Below, piece after piece: positions 27,320 through 35,649 of a DNA stretch of 64,000 nucleotides (position 1 is its first letter; every line of letters starts with the position of its first letter). Source of the stretch: Escherichia phage phi92. The DNA is taken from sequence record NC_023693.1; one strand, 5' to 3'. The notes beneath the pieces are model-generated. The model was not told the origin of the DNA. It was given only the letters and a program-made list of their open reading frames with translations, and did no database searches. The translations under genes and the position numbers were made by a program.

Positions 27320-27928
27320 ATGTATCCTATTCCTTTATTTATGTCAACAACATCAGCTTCAGTAGTAACAGCTACATCTATAACTACTTCCTCTATTGGT
27401 ATTGCAATAGTTGGTGGTAAAAAACAACTGACATACACAGTTACACCGGAAGATGGTGCATTATTTGATATAGCTTTTTCATCTTCAGATAATACCAAAA
27501 TGGTTATAGATAATAGTGGTATGATGGAGTTTGTTGCCGAAGGTGGTTTTGATGCAATAATGACAGCTAAAAATAATTTAGGTGCTGTCTTAACTGATCA
27601 ATCTGGTGGCTATGCTTCAGAATTAAGTGTGTACACTGAAAGTCTATCGGCTATGGATGTAGGCACTACTCAACAGTTGGTTGCTACAATCAGTCCAGAA
27701 GGTGCTAAAGACCTTCCAGATATGGTAATTACATACACCACAACAGATCCAGAAGTAGCTACTGTAAGCCCTACAGGGTTAATAACTGCTCTTAAAGATG
27801 GCGGTTGCCGTATAGGTTGTACTGCAACGTATCAAGGAACAGTTGTGGCCTCTGATAGGTCTTATTTAGGTGTTAATGCTATTCCTGTTATTTCTAATGT
27901 AACAGCCGTATCTTTAATAACTCAATAG
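27320..27928 (+). CDS. bacterial Ig-like (Big_2-type) domain protein
   Basis: Pattern GTTQQLVATISPEGA...VATVSPTGLITALKDGGCRIGCTATYQG resembles Big_2 domains; 202 aa. Confidence 0.45.
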   Translation: MYPIPLFMSTTSASVVTATSITTSSIGIAIVGGKKQLTYTVTPEDGALFDIAFSSSDNTKMVIDNSGMMEFVAEGGFDAIMTAKNNLGAVLTDQSGGYASELSVYTESLSAMDVGTTQQLVATISPEGAKDLPDMVITYTTTDPEVATVSPTGLITALKDGGCRIGCTATYQGTVVASDRSYLGVNAIPVISNVTAVSLITQ

Positions 27929-28094
27929 CTACAGATGATTCGTTCATTAAAGAAGTTATTGTCTTTGCTGGACAAGATAACGTAAATGCACACTTTACAG
28001 AACTATCTGGTGCAAATAAAGCAGCAATGAGTAGCACAACAGCCCGTAATGCATATGCTACGCAACGTGGTTTAGCAAATGCTGAAGTTCTTCC

Positions 28095-28982
28095 GTGTTA
28101 AATACAGCTTCTGGATCATCAGCAGCAGATAAATATGCTGACGATAAAGCTGGAACAGGTACACCAGATAACTACTGGTATGATCTGGATAACACAGCAG
28201 ATGGGCCATGCTTAACTAACTTTATCACTAAAGTCACACCTTATGCAAGTAAGGTTAAAGCAATTATTTGGGGACAAGGTGAAAATGATGCTGTATCAGC
28301 ATCTTCGACTGTTGCAGGTAGGTACAGTAACACTACACGTTACCATGATGCTACGATAGCTATCTTTGATAAGATGCGTACAATAGTTCCTGCTTCTCAA
28401 GCAAAAATTGTTTGGCAGATCCTAGGACGTTCTTATTTATATGGTGTAGAAGTTAATGGTGTGGATTGGCAGAAGTACAGAAATGTACAAAGAACCATCT
28501 CTACAGCACGTGATGATGTTATCATTGGTTCTTGGGTAGATGGTGCTGAACGTTACAGTGGTTATGTTTATGAAGAAGGTATTGATGGTCGTATCCATTA
28601 TATTTCTTCTGTATACCAAACAGCAGCTACAAAACTTGCTAAATCAGCAGCAGACGGTACAGATTTAACATCAACGTCACCTGTTTGGGTTGATATGTCT
28701 GTTCCAACAGGAGGAGCCGCTGTAAGACAAGCTAACCAAGATGTAATTATCTCTTGGGAACCAGCAGGATATACTAAACATTACTTCCGAAATGTAAACG
28801 TCCTCACAGCAGCAATTCTTACAGAACAAACCCTGGATACTAACACTTACACATTTACTTATGCAGATCAGGTTGAACAATATGGATTTGCAGCAGGTAC
28901 AACAGTGTTTGATGTTGCACACTATGATGCTGATAATGACGTGTTATCACCTCTTGTCAGATTTACAGTCAATGTTACATAA
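28095..28982 (+). CDS. hypothetical protein, possible SGNH-like carbohydrate esterase
   Basis: GTG start; motifs WGQGENDA (GxND-like) and DVAHYD (DxxH-like); an upstream open frame in another reading frame contains VIVFAGQDN. Confidence 0.3.
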   Translation: MLNTASGSSAADKYADDKAGTGTPDNYWYDLDNTADGPCLTNFITKVTPYASKVKAIIWGQGENDAVSASSTVAGRYSNTTRYHDATIAIFDKMRTIVPASQAKIVWQILGRSYLYGVEVNGVDWQKYRNVQRTISTARDDVIIGSWVDGAERYSGYVYEEGIDGRIHYISSVYQTAATKLAKSAADGTDLTSTSPVWVDMSVPTGGAAVRQANQDVIISWEPAGYTKHYFRNVNVLTAAILTEQTLDTNTYTFTYADQVEQYGFAAGTTVFDVAHYDADNDVLSPLVRFTVNVT

Positions 28983-28986
28983 ACAA

Positions 28987-29015
28987 AAAGGAGCCATTAG
29001 GCTCCTTTTCTTTTA
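28987..29015. terminator. bidirectional terminator between the convergent modules
   Basis: AAAGGAGCC-atta-GGCTCCTTT flanked by T-runs on both strands; lies between the + strand stop at 28982 and the - strand stop at 29018. Confidence 0.6.
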
Positions 29016-29017
29016 TC

Positions 29018-29449
29018 TTAATCAGTGAAAATTACGCTTACATCTTCTTTAGAGAAGAGTTTATGATCTTCACCTTTTGTCTCAAGAGTTTCATACAGAT
29101 TAAGAAGTTCTGAAACGTCTTTCTCTACCAGTTTCTTCAATGTTGCAATTTTCTGTTTGCGACTCTTAATACGTTCAGCTACAACCTTACGCTGGTATCC
29201 GGCAGTACGATAACCTGAGAAAGTTACACCAGTGAGACTTGCAGTTACAGGATCGTAGTGACGTTCAATCTGAAATTTATTAAAAGGTACAGCGTCATCA
29301 CGAATAATCTTACCGCCATTACTTACTTGACGAAGACCAGTAACTTGCTCCAGTCGTGCCATAGAAATCTTTGGAGACAGACCAGAGTCTAGGTTCATAC
29401 CATTGTTAATCAGTGCTTTCAGGGTGATTTTGCTGTTCAGTGTACTCAT
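29018..29449 (-). CDS. hypothetical protein
   Basis: 143 aa ORF overlapping the 3' end of the methyltransferase gene by 44 nt. Confidence 0.4.
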   Translation of the reverse strand: MSTLNSKITLKALINNGMNLDSGLSPKISMARLEQVTGLRQVSNGGKIIRDDAVPFNKFQIERHYDPVTASLTGVTFSGYRTAGYQRKVVAERIKSRKQKIATLKKLVEKDVSELLNLYETLETKGEDHKLFSKEDVSVIFTD

Positions 29450-30137
29450 TTAGTCGTTCCTCCGCTTGCTTAAAAATATTTACATCGGCTTCACAGCCAA
29501 AGTATTCTCTACCTGTTAAAAGTGCCGCAACTTGTGTTGTTGCACTTCCAGAGAAGAAGTCTAAGACTACATCTCCTTCGTTGGTGTGTATATTAATAAG
29601 GTCACAAAACAAAGTCAAGTGTTTTTGTGTTGGATGAAAACGATCTGCTCCTTGATAGATAGGATACTCAAACACACCCTTATGGTAGGAAGCATTGAAG
29701 GTTGGCTTCGAACCTTTAACACAAACAATAGCCATCTCTTTAGCGTTACTAAGATAGTTAACACCACTGTTGATGGGTACAGGGTTTGTTTTAATCCATT
29801 CAATAGTACGGAACATACGAAAACCAAGCGGTTCAAGGATTTCACGTAGCTCCTGGATCTTCCAGATATCATACCAAACTATGCAAGTACCACCTTTTCT
29901 AAGCACCCTGTAGGCTTCTTTGAATACTTCTTTAAAGTAAGGAATATCTACAACATCCCAATCACCAAAGTTGTAAGATACACGGAATCTATCCGTATCT
30001 TTTCCAGTCGGCTCTCCAGATTGAAAATTTGTGTCACGAGAAATAGCATATGGTGGGTCAGTAAGAATCAAATCTACACTATTGCTTTCGAGGGTTTGCA
30101 GGTAGTTTAATGCGGTGTTGTTTACAAATTCGCTCAT
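29406..30137 (-). CDS. DNA methyltransferase, beta-class (N6-adenine or N4-cytosine)
   Basis: DPPY catalytic motif (LILTDPPYA) lies N-terminal to the AdoMet-binding motif FFSGSATT; RBS GAAGGAG. Confidence 0.7.
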   Translation of the reverse strand: MSEFVNNTALNYLQTLESNSVDLILTDPPYAISRDTNFQSGEPTGKDTDRFRVSYNFGDWDVVDIPYFKEVFKEAYRVLRKGGTCIVWYDIWKIQELREILEPLGFRMFRTIEWIKTNPVPINSGVNYLSNAKEMAIVCVKGSKPTFNASYHKGVFEYPIYQGADRFHPTQKHLTLFCDLINIHTNEGDVVLDFFSGSATTQVAALLTGREYFGCEADVNIFKQAEERLNEYTEQQNHPESTD

Positions 30138-30149
30138 TATATCTCCTTC

Positions 30150-30176
30150 AAAGAAAAGGAGCCGTTAGGCTCCTTA
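30150..30176 (-). terminator. intrinsic terminator downstream of ssb
   Basis: On the - strand, AAGGAGCC-taac-GGCTCCTT followed by TTCTTT. Confidence 0.5.
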
Positions 30177-30197
30177 TATTCACACAATACTTAACTA

Positions 30198-31145
30198 TTA
30201 GAAACAGTGCAGGAAGTTTCGACCATACTGCAAACCAATAGGAGCAAATGGGATATCATCATCGAAATCTTGAACAACAGGTTCTGATTCTTTCGGTGCT
30301 GGCTCTTTCTTCTCTACTTTTTTAGTTTCTTTCTTAACTTCTTGTACTGAGGTAGACATTCCACGGATAGCAGCAGCTACTTTATCAGACAAAGCAAGAA
30401 CTTCACGAGCAGCTTCAATAATCTCTTCTGCCGTTACAGTTTTACCTGTATGATCACGACAAGCGTTAAGAATTGCGTGTCCAACTGAAGCACCAAGATC
30501 ATAGTCAGTCGCAGCAGCGCCACGATCTTTAGCAATTTCTGCTTTCAGAGTAACAGTTGCAGATTGTACCACACCAGCCAAGTCGAAAGCATCACCTTTC
30601 ACACCAGCACGTAGAAGCTCCAGAGCGCCGTTTACAGCGTGTCCTGTTTCAATCCCTACGGTATCACGTTTTTTGTAGTTAGGCTTGCTACCTTCGTTAT
30701 TAGATGGCTTATTTCCACCTTTTGAAGAAGATTGTGCTTGCTGAACACCTTCTGTTGAAAGAACAGTGATTTTACCTTTAGAGGAGTTGTAGTATGTTTT
30801 GCCATTCCATTCGGAAGGTTTAACATCTATAGTTACTTCTACACCTTTTTCGATAGTAATCCACTTATCACCATCTTTAACTTGCAGGTTTTCATGTTCT
30901 GGGTGCAGTTTAACTTCACCTAGGCTAACCCAAACACCTTTATCATCAGCACCAGCACCTTTCTCTTTAATAAGCAGAGATGCTTTGTGAGTTGATTCAA
31001 TTTTCTTATCTGGCTGACCTGCAACCTTAATATAAGAGACTTTCATTTCATCAAACTTATCCAGTTTGACATATTCAACGATACCTTCAGCCCAGAATGC
31101 TTCTTTTTTAGTACGACGGTCGATTTCAGAATTAATTACTGGCAT
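30198..31145 (-). CDS. ssb: single-stranded DNA-binding protein
   Basis: C-terminal acidic tail ...DFDDDIPF, the canonical SSB client-interaction tip; Gly/Ser-rich linker. Confidence 0.65.
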   Translation of the reverse strand: MPVINSEIDRRTKKEAFWAEGIVEYVKLDKFDEMKVSYIKVAGQPDKKIESTHKASLLIKEKGAGADDKGVWVSLGEVKLHPEHENLQVKDGDKWITIEKGVEVTIDVKPSEWNGKTYYNSSKGKITVLSTEGVQQAQSSSKGGNKPSNNEGSKPNYKKRDTVGIETGHAVNGALELLRAGVKGDAFDLAGVVQSATVTLKAEIAKDRGAAATDYDLGASVGHAILNACRDHTGKTVTAEEIIEAAREVLALSDKVAAAIRGMSTSVQEVKKETKKVEKKEPAPKESEPVVQDFDDDIPFAPIGLQYGRNFLHCF

Positions 31146-31161
31146 AAATTCTCCTCTATAA

Positions 31162-31560
31162 TTACATTACTTTAACACAAAACTCTCGTAAAAGAGTAGC
31201 GTCAGTTTCTTCCAACAGGTATTTACCAAGACCAATACCAAATCCTATTTCACCACTTTCGAAATGGAGGATTTGTATCTTTTCTCCACCAAGGTTAATT
31301 ACTTTTGCTTTTCCAGGATTATCCAAAACATCTCGTATTGTATCCTGTAGTAGCATTAGTTCACGTTTTGTGATAGTGGTTTCAGATATCTCTTTGTTTT
31401 CTACTCTCACTGTTAAACGGTTGTATCCACCAAAGAGACATAGTATTTGAATAAAAAAGGTATTATCTTGAGGTTCAACATCTTTTTTAGTTAGCTCAAG
31501 ACGATTAGTTTCTCTACTGTAGAACGTCTCGACTAAGATTTTAGAACGATTATCTGTCAT
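31162..31560 (-). CDS. hypothetical protein
   Basis: 132 aa ORF. Confidence 0.4.
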   Translation of the reverse strand: MTDNRSKILVETFYSRETNRLELTKKDVEPQDNTFFIQILCLFGGYNRLTVRVENKEISETTITKRELMLLQDTIRDVLDNPGKAKVINLGGEKIQILHFESGEIGFGIGLGKYLLEETDATLLREFCVKVM

Positions 31561-31603
31561 TCAAGTCCTCATAATAACACATAATTACAATGTTTGTCAA
31601 CAC

Positions 31604-32197
31604 TTAAATTTTAAATTCTTCATTGTTAAATGAATCCAGTGTACGTACTTCTGGTTCTTTGGGAATGAAAACGTCTTTTACAAAGCGGAACATAGGGAAA
31701 CGTTCTGCCATTTTACGGACGTGTGCTTCTTTACCTGTGTATCGGTGATTAATAGTGCAAATATTAGTTTTCAATGCAAATTCAAAATCTGGATGATATA
31801 CATAATTTTGACCATCCCAGTAACACAAGCAAATAGCTACATCAAAGTTCCATACGATTTCACTGCGTACACCTTCTTCCATGATCATAAAGTTAAACTT
31901 AAGATCTTTATAGTATGCTTCAAATACCCATTTCAAATGTGGTAGTTCGGCATAAGTGTGTTCTGTTTGCTTAGTAAGTTGTTTAACATTACGTGCACCA
32001 ACACCCAACATCAAAAATTTCTCTACTAATACGAGTGTATTGTGGTTAGGCATACGCAAGTAAATATCAATATCTTGCGCAGGTTTCTCTAATCGCCAAT
32101 CACGTACAGCGCCGCCAGCTACAATTGCAAACGGATCTACCAGTTGGCACATACGTAATACTTCTAAAGCTCGTACTTTTTGATCTTCAATATTCAT
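31604..32197 (-). CDS. minimal nucleotidyltransferase, CCA-adding enzyme/poly(A) polymerase head-domain-like
   Basis: FAIVAGGAVRDWRLEKPAQDIDIYL matches the GGAVRD...DxD signature of class II tRNA nucleotidyltransferases; only 197 aa. Confidence 0.5.
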   Translation of the reverse strand: MNIEDQKVRALEVLRMCQLVDPFAIVAGGAVRDWRLEKPAQDIDIYLRMPNHNTLVLVEKFLMLGVGARNVKQLTKQTEHTYAELPHLKWVFEAYYKDLKFNFMIMEEGVRSEIVWNFDVAICLCYWDGQNYVYHPDFEFALKTNICTINHRYTGKEAHVRKMAERFPMFRFVKDVFIPKEPEVRTLDSFNNEEFKI

Positions 32198-32232
32198 ATT
32201 TTCTCCTATCTCTTATGGTCTTTGCGTTATTC

Positions 32233-32250
32233 TAGATGTTCAAACATCTA
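32233..32250. repeat. 18 bp palindrome TAGATGTT-ca-AACATCTA (candidate operator), next to a hairpin at 32274-32303
   Basis: Perfect 8 bp inverted-repeat arms in the intergenic region between the DNA polymerase and nucleotidyltransferase genes. Confidence 0.4.
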
Positions 32251-32334
32251 ATTATGAAATGGTTTAAAAGTGCGGAACAACCTTGGCAATAACAGATTGT
32301 TCCACATAAAAACTCCTTTAAAATCAAAGAGTTG

Positions 32335-35300
32335 TCAGTGACAAGTTGACCATGAACTACCAACATCGTAACCAGCAGTGAGAGGTACATTAAGATTGTA
32401 ATACTCACCAGCTTTATTAACAGCGATAGATGCTAATTCTCCAGCACGACTGTAGGCTGTAAACCAACCACCTTTCGGAGATTCATGTACGTTAGCCCAA
32501 ATCTTGCCAGTACGTTTCTCTTCCTCTTCTTTCCAGGCATTAACTTTATCCAAACATTCTTTATCAATTTTCTTTTGTTCCTCTGGATCATCAACTTGAG
32601 TCCAACCTAAAGATTCTTTAGAGAACCATTTAAAATGCACCAGATCACGAGTTACTTCAAGCTGTGCTTCATCGTGATATGCAATCATTTGTTGAACGAA
32701 TGACTTATTTTTCCAGTCATCAACAAAAAAGTCAACAGCTAATCCTTCTTCTTCGATAAGATCGTCGTAGATAACCATTGCTCTTTTTGCACAAATAACA
32801 CCACCACTCTGGAACAGAGAGTTAAGTATTGCGTGTGCAGATCGTGTAGGTACTTTCCTACCATCAATACCAAGAATGTATTTCTTACCTGTTTTAACCC
32901 AAAAATCATGCAGACGTTCTTTAAGAAGCGCAAGAGGTTTTGCAGCTTCCCAGAAAGCATCGTATACAAGCTGTCCTGTATACATATCACTACCTATAGT
33001 TTTTGCTACTTTTGCAGCTTGAGCACCATAAGTAATACCATACTTAACAGATTTAGCAGGGCTTCGTTCAAACTTACGACCAATAGTGTCAGAAATACGT
33101 CGAGCCATCATTGTATGAACATCATTAGGTTTTTCCAATAATAGAGCATTACAATATTCGTGTGGTTCCTGCTCGTACCGCCAACAATTCCCTGTAATCG
33201 TGATGCAGTCTTTCTGACGCATAACCCATGTACCGAGTTCTGTTTGTGGACACCAAACATCTTCTACACCCCATTCTTCAATAGTCAGACTTTGAACAGG
33301 GATGTGAGAGCGGTTAGCCAACGTTGCCACTTTTACTTTCTGGTCTTTCGTATTGAAGGCTACAGAAATATTACCCCCATGAACCAGGTATGAGGCAGTT
33401 AAGGCTGCTTCAAAAAGTTCTCCTGGGTTCTGCGCCCAGCGCCAAACAGGTTTTTGTTTATGTTTGTGCCAGTAACCATCCGCAATCAAAAAACCTTCCA
33501 AGAAAGCCACACGCTCGGCATGAGACATATTAACTACACGTTCTACCCACGGAACATCCCATTTACCTTGTTGAACAGAAGTTAAACTATTTACTTGATC
33601 TTGTTCCATGTTAAATGGAGCATTACAAATAATGTTATCTCCTGTGCAAAGCTCGGCAGTTGTTCTGACTTTAGGCACATAAGTATTCCCTGTACTACGA
33701 GTATTAACATACCAACGGTGATCTGCTGTTGCACGATAAGTATGGGATTTTCCTTTAATCTCAAACGTCTTACTATTTTTATAGAAGACCTTACCTTTTA
33801 CTTTAGTCCATTCTTTAAGTCCTGTTTCTGGGTTATATCCTAAGATTTCATCCCCTTCTTGTAGATCGTGATAACCAACCCAACCTTTACGGGTTAGTGC
33901 TTGTGCATCCATAGGTACACAGTAGTGTGATTCTATTTTTGCCTCAAGAGAATCAAAGTCATAACCAATTTGGAAGTATTTTGGAACTTCTACACCAAAT
34001 AAGTTACGCATTTCATATCCGTACAGAGATGTTACACGTGGGATATTTGCTACTAACCTATGTTTCATACGAGACGTAGCTGCATCACACGTTGCAGCAG
34101 GAGTTGGTATACGACCATCAGCCCTTACTGCTGCCAGATAACCTTTATCGTAATCCTCTTCATCTTCTTCCCAATCAGCACCACCTCCTAGAATAGAGTT
34201 CCTACGGTGTTTATACGTAAGATACTGCACAATCTGCGTAGCATAAGGAAACTTTTCACCTAGTGCTTCCAAGTTAGGACAAATATCTTTCTCTTGCCCT
34301 TTTGTAAAGGAAGGGTTAGTAAGCACTTTAACACCACGACCTTTAGCTTTAGCAATACGATCTCTTAGTTTCCATTCCAAAGTTTCTGGTGTGCACTCCA
34401 GATGATCACATCTGTCCTGGCAGAAGTTAGATGCCAATGTTTGATCAACATAGTCACGAATAGCTTTCTCCATTTGTGCTTCATCTTTCTTAATCTTAGT
34501 GCCAGATTTAAGAGTGATATCTTTATCTTTATATTCAGATGGACTCCAACCTAAACCAACTAACCAGTTTTTAATATGTGTCGTGTCGTCTAAAGTAGCA
34601 GGTACTGTAGGATCACAAATAGGTTCTTCTGCTGGAATAGGTAGTTTAAACTCTTTACCTAAAGCAAATAACCACCAACCATCTTCTTTTTGTACAAGTT
34701 CACCAGAATGTTTCTCTGCAAACTTTATCATGTTACTTGAAGGTTCACCATTCTTTTTAAACTGTAGTTTAGGTGGAATGAATGATTTCAAATAACCTTT
34801 AGTAGCAGGTTTAGGAGGTAGCACAGGTTCTGCCTCTAAACGACATGCTTCCATTCGAGCATCCAGATCACGAATATTATCTTCTGCTTGTTTCATATTG
34901 AAAGCAAAGCCACGGTGCTCTTGACGTGTAATAATATCCGCTACACGTTGTTCTAAGTTAAATGGTTCAGACCACTTATTATAATCACCCCACTCTTCCA
35001 TCAAATAACGGAACACTGCGGTGTTAGCTTTGTTATCGTAAATACAGTAATACAGCATATCTGCTGCAAATGTTTTAAATCTTTCAGTTTCAGGGATATT
35101 TTTTCTAAAATCAATTTTAACATCCCCTCCAGCTTTCTTAGATAACTCTGCCAGACTATGACCACCGAAGCGATCAGGGTTTAGTGTCTTACTTAAGATC
35201 ATAGTATCACAAATTTCAATGTTACTATTACCCCAAGTATTGTACTTAATACTGTAGTTGAGTTTAAAAAATAATTTAATTGCCAGTAAGTCAAAGTTAA

Positions 35301-35649
35301 TGATGTTATGTCCAACTACTTTGGTAATTTTATAGTTTGAATTACCTTTAAATTTACCTGTTCCATTTACAAAATCAGGAAAATCTTTAAGAGGGAAATG
35401 GGTATATTCTAAATGCTCATATTCCTCCAGTCGGTATTCATACTTTCCGTCAGTCTCAACATACGGACGACCATCGAAAAGATATTTATCACCATCATGG
35501 AAAGCAATAATCTCTCCAGTATCATGACTTTCGCACACAATACAGTGCATTGCAAAACTATCTTTTAAACGATATGGACTTGCCAAGTAATCTACACTTT
35601 CGTCATTAAGCAAGTTGTTACTTTCAATGTCGAAAGTAAAAGCTCCCAT
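32335..35649 (-). CDS. DNA polymerase, family A (T7-like) with 3'-5' exonuclease domain; intein-containing
   Basis: Exo I motif FDIES near the N-terminus; motif A-like GYDFDSLEAKIESHY; motif B-like RKFERSPAKSVKYGITYGAQAAK; NDVHT; a ~245 aa insertion between motif A and the following conserved segment. Confidence 0.75.
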   Translation of the reverse strand: MGAFTFDIESNNLLNDESVDYLASPYRLKDSFAMHCIVCESHDTGEIIAFHDGDKYLFDGRPYVETDGKYEYRLEEYEHLEYTHFPLKDFPDFVNGTGKFKGNSNYKITKVVGHNIINFDLLAIKLFFKLNYSIKYNTWGNSNIEICDTMILSKTLNPDRFGGHSLAELSKKAGGDVKIDFRKNIPETERFKTFAADMLYYCIYDNKANTAVFRYLMEEWGDYNKWSEPFNLEQRVADIITRQEHRGFAFNMKQAEDNIRDLDARMEACRLEAEPVLPPKPATKGYLKSFIPPKLQFKKNGEPSSNMIKFAEKHSGELVQKEDGWWLFALGKEFKLPIPAEEPICDPTVPATLDDTTHIKNWLVGLGWSPSEYKDKDITLKSGTKIKKDEAQMEKAIRDYVDQTLASNFCQDRCDHLECTPETLEWKLRDRIAKAKGRGVKVLTNPSFTKGQEKDICPNLEALGEKFPYATQIVQYLTYKHRRNSILGGGADWEEDEEDYDKGYLAAVRADGRIPTPAATCDAATSRMKHRLVANIPRVTSLYGYEMRNLFGVEVPKYFQIGYDFDSLEAKIESHYCVPMDAQALTRKGWVGYHDLQEGDEILGYNPETGLKEWTKVKGKVFYKNSKTFEIKGKSHTYRATADHRWYVNTRSTGNTYVPKVRTTAELCTGDNIICNAPFNMEQDQVNSLTSVQQGKWDVPWVERVVNMSHAERVAFLEGFLIADGYWHKHKQKPVWRWAQNPGELFEAALTASYLVHGGNISVAFNTKDQKVKVATLANRSHIPVQSLTIEEWGVEDVWCPQTELGTWVMRQKDCITITGNCWRYEQEPHEYCNALLLEKPNDVHTMMARRISDTIGRKFERSPAKSVKYGITYGAQAAKVAKTIGSDMYTGQLVYDAFWEAAKPLALLKERLHDFWVKTGKKYILGIDGRKVPTRSAHAILNSLFQSGGVICAKRAMVIYDDLIEEEGLAVDFFVDDWKNKSFVQQMIAYHDEAQLEVTRDLVHFKWFSKESLGWTQVDDPEEQKKIDKECLDKVNAWKEEEEKRTGKIWANVHESPKGGWFTAYSRAGELASIAVNKAGEYYNLNVPLTAGYDVGSSWSTCH
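33187..33921 (-). mobile_element. intein (aa 577-821 of the polymerase ORF) with one LAGLIDADG-like motif
   Basis: Starts with Cys (CVPMD...), TxxH block (TADHRW), LAGLIDADG-like FLEGFLIADGY, ends ...ITGN with +1 Cys (CWRY); removing it restores a contiguous motif A segment. Confidence 0.6.

Follow-up and report, generated by a model that had tools for sequence, protein, structure and literature searches.

In the part of the Escherichia phage phi92 genome analysed here (64,000 nucleotides, nt, of NC_023693.1; the window in what follows), a minus-strand block of replication genes meets the plus-strand tail genes, and at this junction lie minus-strand genes for a protein resembling single-stranded DNA-binding proteins (SSBs), for a beta-class DNA methyltransferase and for a small protein, p143, whose gene overlaps the 3' end of the methyltransferase gene (Table 1). 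The two larger genes had been located correctly in an earlier note on this DNA, which took them to encode an SSB with a canonical acidic tip, probably able to recruit host proteins, and an orphan methylase. The best explanation that we can offer, and to which as a whole we would give odds of about two in three (0.68), is that the locus lies where the replication genes of a phi92-like phage end, on the promoter-distal side, and that it holds two separate things: an SSB-like protein with an elaborated C-terminal tail, and an accessory cassette that would be the remains of a restriction–modification (RM) system. The replication block runs in the order primase/helicase, family-A DNA polymerase, nucleotidyltransferase, an open reading frame (ORF) of 132 amino acids (aa), and the SSB-like gene. 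The region 28900–32300 is 98.9% identical to that of Escherichia phage muut (Justusliebigvirus, Stephanstirmvirinae; the phi92-like myoviruses), and 54 phage records match it with identities of 95–99% over 80% or more of its length.

Table 1. Features at the junction of replication and tail genes, with positions in the window (AdoMet, S-adenosylmethionine; AF2, AlphaFold2; pLDDT, predicted local distance difference test)
Feature	Position	Strand	Basis
Methyltransferase, beta-class, 243 aa	29406..30137	-	PF01555, phrog_67, 5hek match, ICEA linkage
Methyltransferase motif IV DPPY, aa 27-30	30048..30059	-	sequence
Methyltransferase motif I FSGSAT, aa 195-200, FxGxG-like AdoMet site	29538..29555	-	sequence
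p143, 143-aa ORF, overlapping methyltransferase 3' end by 44 nt	29018..29449	-	hhalign, tblastn, synteny
p143 stretch aa 16-94, aligned to ICEA columns 37-111	29168..29404	-	hhalign
GGAGGA Shine-Dalgarno, 8 nt upstream of p143 ATG, within methyltransferase gene	29458..29463	-	sequence
SSB-like protein, 315 aa, phrog_4477 family	30198..31145	-	ORF, PHROG, AF2
Predicted N-terminal OB-like beta-barrel, aa 1-130	30756..31145	-	AF2 block pLDDT 88-96
Predicted four-helix domain, aa 163-260	30366..30659	-	AF2; conservation as far as rV5 and PVP-SE1
DFDDDIPF, aa 293-300, E. coli-SSB-like acidic tip, internal	30246..30269	-	sequence
15-aa extension APIGLQYGRNFLHCF, aa 301-315	30201..30245	-	sequence and homolog comparison
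Terminator-like hairpin, between SSB-like gene and methyltransferase	30156..30175	-	sequence
Bidirectional terminator-like hairpin, between p143 and convergent tail gene	28985..29010	.	sequence
HNH homing-endonuclease ORF start remnant, MVETSCTVSNS*	30191..30226	-, +1 frame relative to SSB-like gene	ORF intact in ZCKP1

The acidic motif DFDDDIPF, with which the SSB had been said to end, is internal: it is followed by fifteen further residues, APIGLQYGRNFLHCF, and only then by the stop codon. The C-terminal peptide of tip plus extension thus reads ...DDDIPFAPIGLQYGRNFLHCF-COOH, against the plain ...PPMDFDDDIPF-COOH. E. coli SSB terminates precisely at ...PPMDFDDDIPF*, and an origin of the extension by read-through into the 3' flank of a host ssb gene was rejected, as the E. 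coli flank (FVIKTIGY...) is unrelated to it. Within the SSB-like family the extension is present in about 20 of 96 cluster representatives, the others stopping at IPF; it is found in rV5 (gp209, DFCDDIPFAPVGLQYGKSRIHAL), PVP-SE1 (gp39) and ZCKP1, and is absent from ESCO13. Where present it is strongly constrained at the protein level: the tails of the window protein and of ZCKP1 differ at 9 of 69 nt, and all nine differences are synonymous, against a nonsynonymous divergence (dN) of 0.25 for the whole protein, while the 18 nt differences between the tails of the window protein and PVP-SE1 bring about only two amino-acid changes, both conservative.

The extension extends well beyond this family. 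A degenerate DNA-pattern scan of IMG/VR yielded at least 120 loci with it, and all 121 extensions recovered from the matches listed are of 14–16 aa, with the consensus AP[IVM]G[LK]x[YFHEC]....[ILMV][HYN]x[ILMV]-COOH. In these matches, as in the family clusters, it begins directly after the Phe of the tip. Its carriers include PF00436 SSBs, phrog_743, the gp2.5-like phrog_112, phrog_44, phrog_2544 and phrog_4477, giving at least six unrelated phage scaffolds that bind single-stranded DNA (ssDNA), plus one helicase; subtypes of the extension are common to unrelated carriers. For example, the canonical SSB of Salmonella phage epsilon34 ends in ...DDDIPFAPVTLPFPRHAIHAI, the same add-on occurs in the SSBs of Hafnia phage Pocitis76, Vibrio phage K433 and the Drexlerviridae phage SCS31, and tip and extension together end the DnaB-like primase/helicase of Klebsiella phage KpS8 (L227, 518..2581; ...DDDTPFAPIGLQYAKHAIYVI). 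From the fifth codon of the extension to its end, pairwise diversity in the 14-aa and 15-aa classes is 0.63 and 0.62 at third positions, 0.45 and 0.50 at first positions and 0.29 and 0.36 at second positions; judged by such patterns, the extension is under purifying selection in the SSB reading frame. It has apparently not been described before: the searchable literature contains no mention of the junction peptide DIPFAP, of the SSB C-terminal tip (SSB-Ct) together with phage-encoded SSBs, or of an acidic tip with a C-terminal extension.

What kind of protein carries this tail in phi92? It has no Pfam match, and its PHROG family, phrog_4477, is of 'unknown function'; against TIGR00621 it scored E = 0.01 and 16 bits (cut-off 54) in the tail only, so neither PF00436 nor TIGR00621 recognizes an OB domain in it, and the designation 'SSB' in the canonical sense did not hold. 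An AF2 model built from 68 homologs (pLDDT 83.8) has a confident beta-barrel, joined by a disordered linker to a four-helix domain, after which the tail is again disordered. The top list of Foldseek comparisons of this model with PDB is made up of ssDNA binders with an OB fold, namely RPA32 (probability 0.96–0.98), STN1, MCM N-domains, phage p2 SSB and Rim1, all with E > 1e-3, and in the viral library uncharacterised relatives come first, with SSB-family entries lower down. The gene is part of the replication module, between the polymerase and primase-helicase genes and the end of the operon, and in phage Eryne, a relative with a complete genome, its homolog is the sole gene annotated as an SSB; the protein is likewise the one candidate for an SSB in the genome, which together with fold and gene position suggests that it binds ssDNA. 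Because of the predicted OB fold, the gene position and the tail, the protein can be read as an SSB, and 'SSB-like' is a reasonable name for it, without implying membership of the canonical SSBs. It would be a phage ssDNA-binding protein in which a non-canonical OB fold is supplemented by a helical domain and a tail predicted to be disordered.

We propose that tip and extension form one portable C-terminal peptide module, which in phages of gamma-proteobacteria ends many unrelated proteins that bind ssDNA and at least one helicase of the DnaB type. Rather than acting as a canonical SSB tip, the module may be a peptide by which these proteins dock on a conserved host factor, and may be recognized in another way than the carboxylate-anchored DDDIPF-COOH. 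That the extension is a specific docking peptide, read together with the tip, is a tentative suggestion, to which we would give somewhat less than an even chance; we make it because the extension keeps to a fixed length, has a conserved hydrophobic terminus and is used on both SSBs and a helicase. The partner would probably belong to the host, which is the likelier because many of the carriers are SSBs of prophages, in genomes that lack a phage polymerase. The broader formulation, that the extension is a distinct interaction module which phages graft onto any ssDNA-binding protein or helicase, redirecting the hub of the host SSB interactome or denying access to it, may be put at nearly even odds; the module could do so, for example, by engaging a replisome or repair factor of the host that is not bound by the plain tip, or by evading a defence that senses SSB tails. 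Likeness of the extension to clamp-binding peptides or degrons was considered by eye only, and we do not claim it.

A parallel for such a use of one peptide may be seen in phage T7, in which gp2.5 and the gp4 helicase both have acidic, Phe-terminated tails that dock on the T7 polymerase. There, as with the SSB-like proteins and the KpS8 helicase, one type of peptide serves an SSB and a helicase; unlike the T7 tails, which differ in sequence, the present module occurs also on lambdoid-type prophage SSBs without a phage polymerase. With the E. coli SSB-Ct (DDDIPF-COOH) the likeness lies in an identical PPMDFDDDIPF or DFDDDIPF at the end of a disordered linker, and the difference in the Phe, which in the window protein is not terminal and is followed by 15 conserved residues, and in the carrier, which has a fold other than PF00436 and an additional helical domain.

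The main rival to docking, which we think unlikely, is that the extension acts as a mask: with the carboxylate no longer free, the phage SSB would not attract nucleases and helicases of the host (ExoI, RecJ, RecQ, Ung), or would escape a tail-sensing defence, and the acidic stretch would be retained just for intramolecular regulation of ssDNA binding. The extension does always start right after the tip Phe, the tail is disordered in the AF2 model, and the coexistence of members with and without the extension would fit a trait involved in an arms race. A pure cap, however, needs no conserved sequence, no fixed length of 14–16 aa and no hydrophobic C-terminus across unrelated carriers, and the presence of a helicase among these fits docking better.

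Somewhat less probable again is the combination originally proposed, in which an orphan methylase without any partner stands next to a canonical SSB able to recruit host SSB-interacting proteins. Solved complexes of E. coli partner proteins show the ultimate Phe of SSB inside a hydrophobic pocket, with a basic residue, arginine, anchoring the carboxyl at the C-terminus (PMC3152348, PMC3632105). Canonical recruitment of host partners by the phi92 protein as encoded is therefore doubtful, because its internal Phe lacks the free terminal carboxylate, and the confidence that had been placed in such recruitment was not justified. The motif itself does occur in the protein and agrees with the E. coli tip, the methyltransferase is of the beta class and has no active endonuclease as a neighbour, several GenBank records annotate both genes in just this way, and orphan methylases of this genus have already been noted (PMC12210895); but the tip is not at the end of the protein, the protein has no SSB domain match in Pfam or NCBIfam, and the methyltransferase has kept a conserved endonuclease-derived partner, p143. 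The observation was thus partly confirmed, and its interpretation partly supported.

The 3' end of the SSB-like gene also has a history of its own. At the same spot in ZCKP1 there is an intact HNH homing-endonuclease ORF (MVETSCIASKVCFKCG...HH..WH), and related ORFs follow the SSB genes of SCS31 and rV5; in all three phages the ORF starts within the DNA that encodes the extension or shortly behind it. Of this ORF the window retains only the first codons (MVETSCTVSNS*). Could the extension then be a functionless scar, carried along by a homing-endonuclease cassette that goes in just behind SSB genes? Besides the overlaps, the situation within Phapecoctavirus would agree with this, since extension and HNH gene occur together in ZCKP1 and are both missing from ESCO13. 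Nevertheless we regard it as very improbable: among the matches listed, the HNH family accompanies only 1 of 120 extension-bearing IMG/VR loci, the downstream genes are highly diverse, and in lineages that have no HNH gene the great majority of substitutions are synonymous when read in the SSB frame. The HNH overlap, rejected on the first two of these grounds as a general cause of the extension, explains local history and perhaps some horizontal spread, and not the module as a whole. As a separate observation, this family of homing endonucleases appears to favour the 3' ends of SSB genes.

Turning to the second element of the locus, the methyltransferase has been assigned correctly to the beta class: DPPY lies N-terminal to FSGSAT, which is the order (motif IV before motif I) of that class, and the protein matches PF01555 (N6_N4_Mtase) over profile positions 1–221 of 221, at 106.1 bits (cut-off 26.7) and E = 3e-30. 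It also falls in phrog_67, and its closest solved relative, over the full length, is M1.HpyAVI (5hek, E = 2e-28). The DPPY motif (not SPPY/F) and the adenine-specific relatives suggest that it is an N6-adenine methyltransferase. Among phage isolates it is at least 99% identical across the genus (that of phage Paula is identical to the window protein), after which identity falls to below 35%; relatives in metagenomes number thousands. The annotation as a methyltransferase is in itself ordinary, and is already in public records.

Its relationships are more informative. In a scan of one genome per prokaryotic species, the 80 closest homologs, both bacterial and archaeal, were 47–57% identical to the window protein, and at 41 of the 80 a PF05315 (ICEA) ORF is situated 2–400 nt downstream on the same strand. 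The same arrangement was found at 22 of 90 viral and metagenomic loci, and an ICEA gene directly adjoins both a 57%-identical bacterial copy of the methyltransferase and a 55%-identical copy on a phage contig. ICEA is the family of the IceA1/NlaIII endonucleases, of which the partner hpyIM is a CATG-specific methyltransferase (PMC4202330). By this linkage, the phi92 methyltransferase is probably a descendant of the IceA1/NlaIII (CATG) lineage of RM systems.

In phi92, the place that bacterial systems give to the endonuclease, downstream of the methyltransferase, is occupied exactly by p143. This protein has no Pfam match at E <= 0.01 and no NCBIfam or PADLOC match, and its PHROG is 'unknown'; nor was a Pfam scan of its distant relatives informative. 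It is present at all six fetched loci with a methyltransferase at least 63% identical to that of phi92, including those of diverged phages in which p143 is only 40–55% identical, and the overlapping pair of genes recurs in four such phages (L138, L139, L146 and L147). The family (29 representative clusters) has a conserved core, SNGGKIIRDD..PF.KF.I.R...GY, and from the gene arrangement p143 is both conserved and translationally coupled to the methyltransferase. By tblastn, p143 matched the N-terminal part of an ICEA ORF (locus L306, E = 8e-5), and when 33 p143-family sequences were aligned by hhalign with 54 ICEA ORFs, columns 16–92 of the former matched columns 37–111 (of 239) of the latter at 96.9% and E = 1.7e-10, two unrelated alignments giving 0.2–0.3% with the same p143 profile. 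The C-terminal half of ICEA contains the conserved HNH motif and cysteines (DHKdG...NdAKRqHCk.C...C.GCYW); p143 has no counterpart of these HNH/Cys4 motifs and its family no conserved Cys or His, and Pfam, PHROG and PADLOC scans and the ICEA comparison revealed no PD-(D/E)xK or other nuclease signature. In place of that half, a single long helix is predicted with low confidence (AF2). On profile evidence, then, p143 is a derivative of the IceA1/NlaIII endonuclease (PF05315) and not a member of the family. The proposal that p143 is itself a restriction enzyme or a controller protein was rejected, since Pfam, PHROGs, NCBIfam and PADLOC yielded no match to a nuclease or helix-turn-helix family.

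The lack of a restriction endonuclease candidate next to the methyltransferase, as claimed in the earlier note, holds in that no catalytically competent restriction endonuclease adjoins the gene, and none was found elsewhere in related complete genomes; what had been overlooked is p143 itself, a relative of the endonuclease without its nuclease domain. The fully annotated relative Eryne has five DNA methyltransferase genes, with no restriction enzyme beside this one. (Elsewhere in Eryne, and outside the window, another methyltransferase gene, 75424..75975, directly follows one for a 397-aa 'endonuclease', 74230..75423.) Moreover, tblastn detected no ICEA gene in 50,697 phage records, including those of Justusliebigvirus. 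The methyltransferase is thus functionally an orphan, yet part of a decayed RM module rather than free-standing. The cassette of methyltransferase and p143 is an accessory insertion: in ESCO13 the SSB-like gene directly adjoins the convergent tail gene, and in ZCKP1 and rV5 a homing endonuclease takes up the same slot.

The lineage brings with it a prediction of the target. CATG is the most depleted tetranucleotide in the window (rank 1 of 136), with 103 occurrences against 233 expected from a second-order Markov model (observed/expected, O/E, 0.44). The corresponding values are 0.55 for the whole Eryne genome, 0.85 for rV5, 0.71 for E. coli K-12 and also 0.71 for the syntenic 50 kb of Phapecoctavirus ESCO13, which is without the cassette. 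Because of the ICEA linkage and this depletion, the latter being circumstantial with regard to specificity, the predicted product is N6-methyladenine (m6A) within CATG (C-m6A-TG). M1.HpyAVI, which recognizes GAGG, resembles the window enzyme in being a small beta-class N6-adenine methyltransferase (5hek/5hfj) of similarly compact size and with the same DPPY-to-FxGxG order, and differs in its target, the associations of the window enzyme favouring CATG. A GAGG specificity by analogy was set aside, since GAGG/CCTC is unbiased in the window (O/E = 1.1) and the linkage favours CATG; we retain it as a caveat. Other tetranucleotides too are avoided in these phages (GTAC in ESCO13, O/E = 0.23; GGCC/CCGG in Justusliebigvirus sequences, 0.39–0.59), which suggests that sister genera have been subject to different restriction pressures.

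We propose that the two-gene accessory cassette descends from a Type II RM system of the IceA1/NlaIII type. Its methyltransferase would most likely make C-m6A-TG on phage DNA, so that the remaining CATG sites are shielded from NlaIII-like host endonucleases; such an anti-restriction role, suggested also in the earlier note, is plausible. The former endonuclease would have been cut down to 143 aa, keeping the N-terminal domain, losing the HNH/zinc half and gaining a long C-terminal helix. We infer that p143 is unable to cut DNA and is kept for a non-nucleolytic job, for which our leading guess is either binding to CATG sites or to an endonuclease subunit, and thereby interference with related host enzymes, or control of the cassette. 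That the pair is a decayed RM module, with an intact methylase and an endonuclease minus its nuclease domain, follows from p143 sharing the N-terminal domain of ICEA and not the HNH half; taken jointly with the protective CATG methylase and the non-nucleolytic remnant, we consider it probable. The pair might instead still be an active restriction or exclusion system, in which p143 cuts or nicks by an unrecognised active site or recruits a nuclease, perhaps for the degradation of host DNA or to keep out competing phages. This reading could draw on the conserved, coupled pair in the classic M-then-R order and on the CATG depletion to be expected from self-exposure to a CATG nuclease. It has hardly any probability, however, as p143 is devoid of HNH, PD-(D/E)xK and other nuclease signatures and of conserved His and Cys residues, and its C-terminal half is predicted, at low confidence, to be one long helix.

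The closest known systems are the CATG-specific Type II systems of Helicobacter, Neisseria and Campylobacter (IceA1/R.NlaIII with M.HpyI, the hpyIM product, or M.NlaIII). The nearest cellular homologs of the methyltransferase stand in just this M-then-ICEA order, and these systems have in common with the phi92 cassette the N-terminal domain of ICEA, shared by p143, and likewise m6A at CATG as the (here predicted) product; they differ in that p143 is without the HNH/zinc half, in that the pair resides on a virulent phage, and in that the specificity in phi92 is a prediction. In Helicobacter pylori there are truncated iceA1 alleles, in which a shortened gene of the NlaIII endonuclease family stands beside an active CATG methylase, as a product of decay at the level of the strain. 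In p143 we likewise see a partial endonuclease next to a methylase, but, unlike those alleles, p143 represents a conserved family with a C-terminal helix of its own, kept across phages at 40–55% identity.

Several points weigh against the account given here, in one or other of its parts. With regard to the tail, Foldseek found nothing in PDB for the SSB-like model at E <= 1e-3; the tail itself is predicted to be disordered (pLDDT ~50–56), and its partner is one that we infer; and of the 54 phage records that match the SSB-like protein most closely (at least 90% identity, tblastn), 45 are Escherichia phages or records named Justusliebigvirus, so conservation among such close records says little by itself, because the divergence is small. 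As to the cassette, the CATG assignment was set by genomic linkage, and not by direct comparison with the characterised M.NlaIII or M.HpyI sequences; specificity can shift at 50–57% identity, and the best solved relative is a GAGG enzyme; depletion of CATG is odd if the phage protects that site, and E. coli itself shows it (O/E = 0.71). The AF2 model of p143 (pLDDT 53.5) is unusable. A search of enterobacterial plasmids gave no NlaIII-like endonuclease, the sole plasmid match being to one Priestia plasmid, and with that single match and none in phages a natural CATG-cutting adversary in enterobacteria was not identified. To our knowledge, none of the RM systems tested in BASEL was specific for CATG. 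The phi92-like phages were exceptionally susceptible to those systems (PMC8594841).

We also draw attention to some features of the neighbouring genes. The DNA polymerase gene (32335..35649) has an insertion of 245 aa (aa 577–821; window 33187..33921, minus strand) that muut and Eryne lack, their polymerases being 99.5% identical to it in all other respects. The insertion has Cys as its first residue, ends in ...ITGN followed by Cys, and contains LEGFLIADGY; it resembles an intein that includes a LAGLIDADG homing endonuclease, which Pfam did not flag at E <= 0.001. Upstream of the SSB-like gene there is a conserved gene (31604..32197, minus strand) for a nucleotidyltransferase of 197 aa (phrog_1614), with a weak match to the PolyA_pol head; its ortholog in L138, the metagenomic relative, has a weak Pfam match to Gad2. 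On the other side of the junction, muut has one tail protein of 628 aa (gp034), whereas in its homolog in the window (27320..28982, plus strand) a 218-nt deletion and another indel have left pieces in three frames, with ORFs at 27320..27928 and 28095..28982; this is either a pseudogene or an assembly error. Finally, four records labelled 'Campylobacter phage' with host C. jejuni (MG065639, MG065645, MG065656 and MG065689) are 98.8% identical to E. coli Justusliebigvirus in this region, and are probably mislabelled or contaminant genomes.

The endonuclease-derived partner and the CATG prediction are new leads, and the extended SSB tail is so above all. For a methylase annotated only generically in more than 50 deposited genomes, CATG is a concrete target prediction. 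An endonuclease without its nuclease domain that several phage lineages nevertheless conserve beside its methylase may be regarded as a candidate case of a protein of defence that has been turned to anti-defence or regulation. The C-terminal tip of SSB is a hub that recruits more than 12 genome-maintenance proteins of E. coli; it has been proposed as a drug target, and is a determinant of the portability of phage recombinases. If the tip is indeed elaborated in a conserved, widespread and phage-specific manner on unrelated scaffolds, this would mean that phages, beyond copying the hub, edit it.

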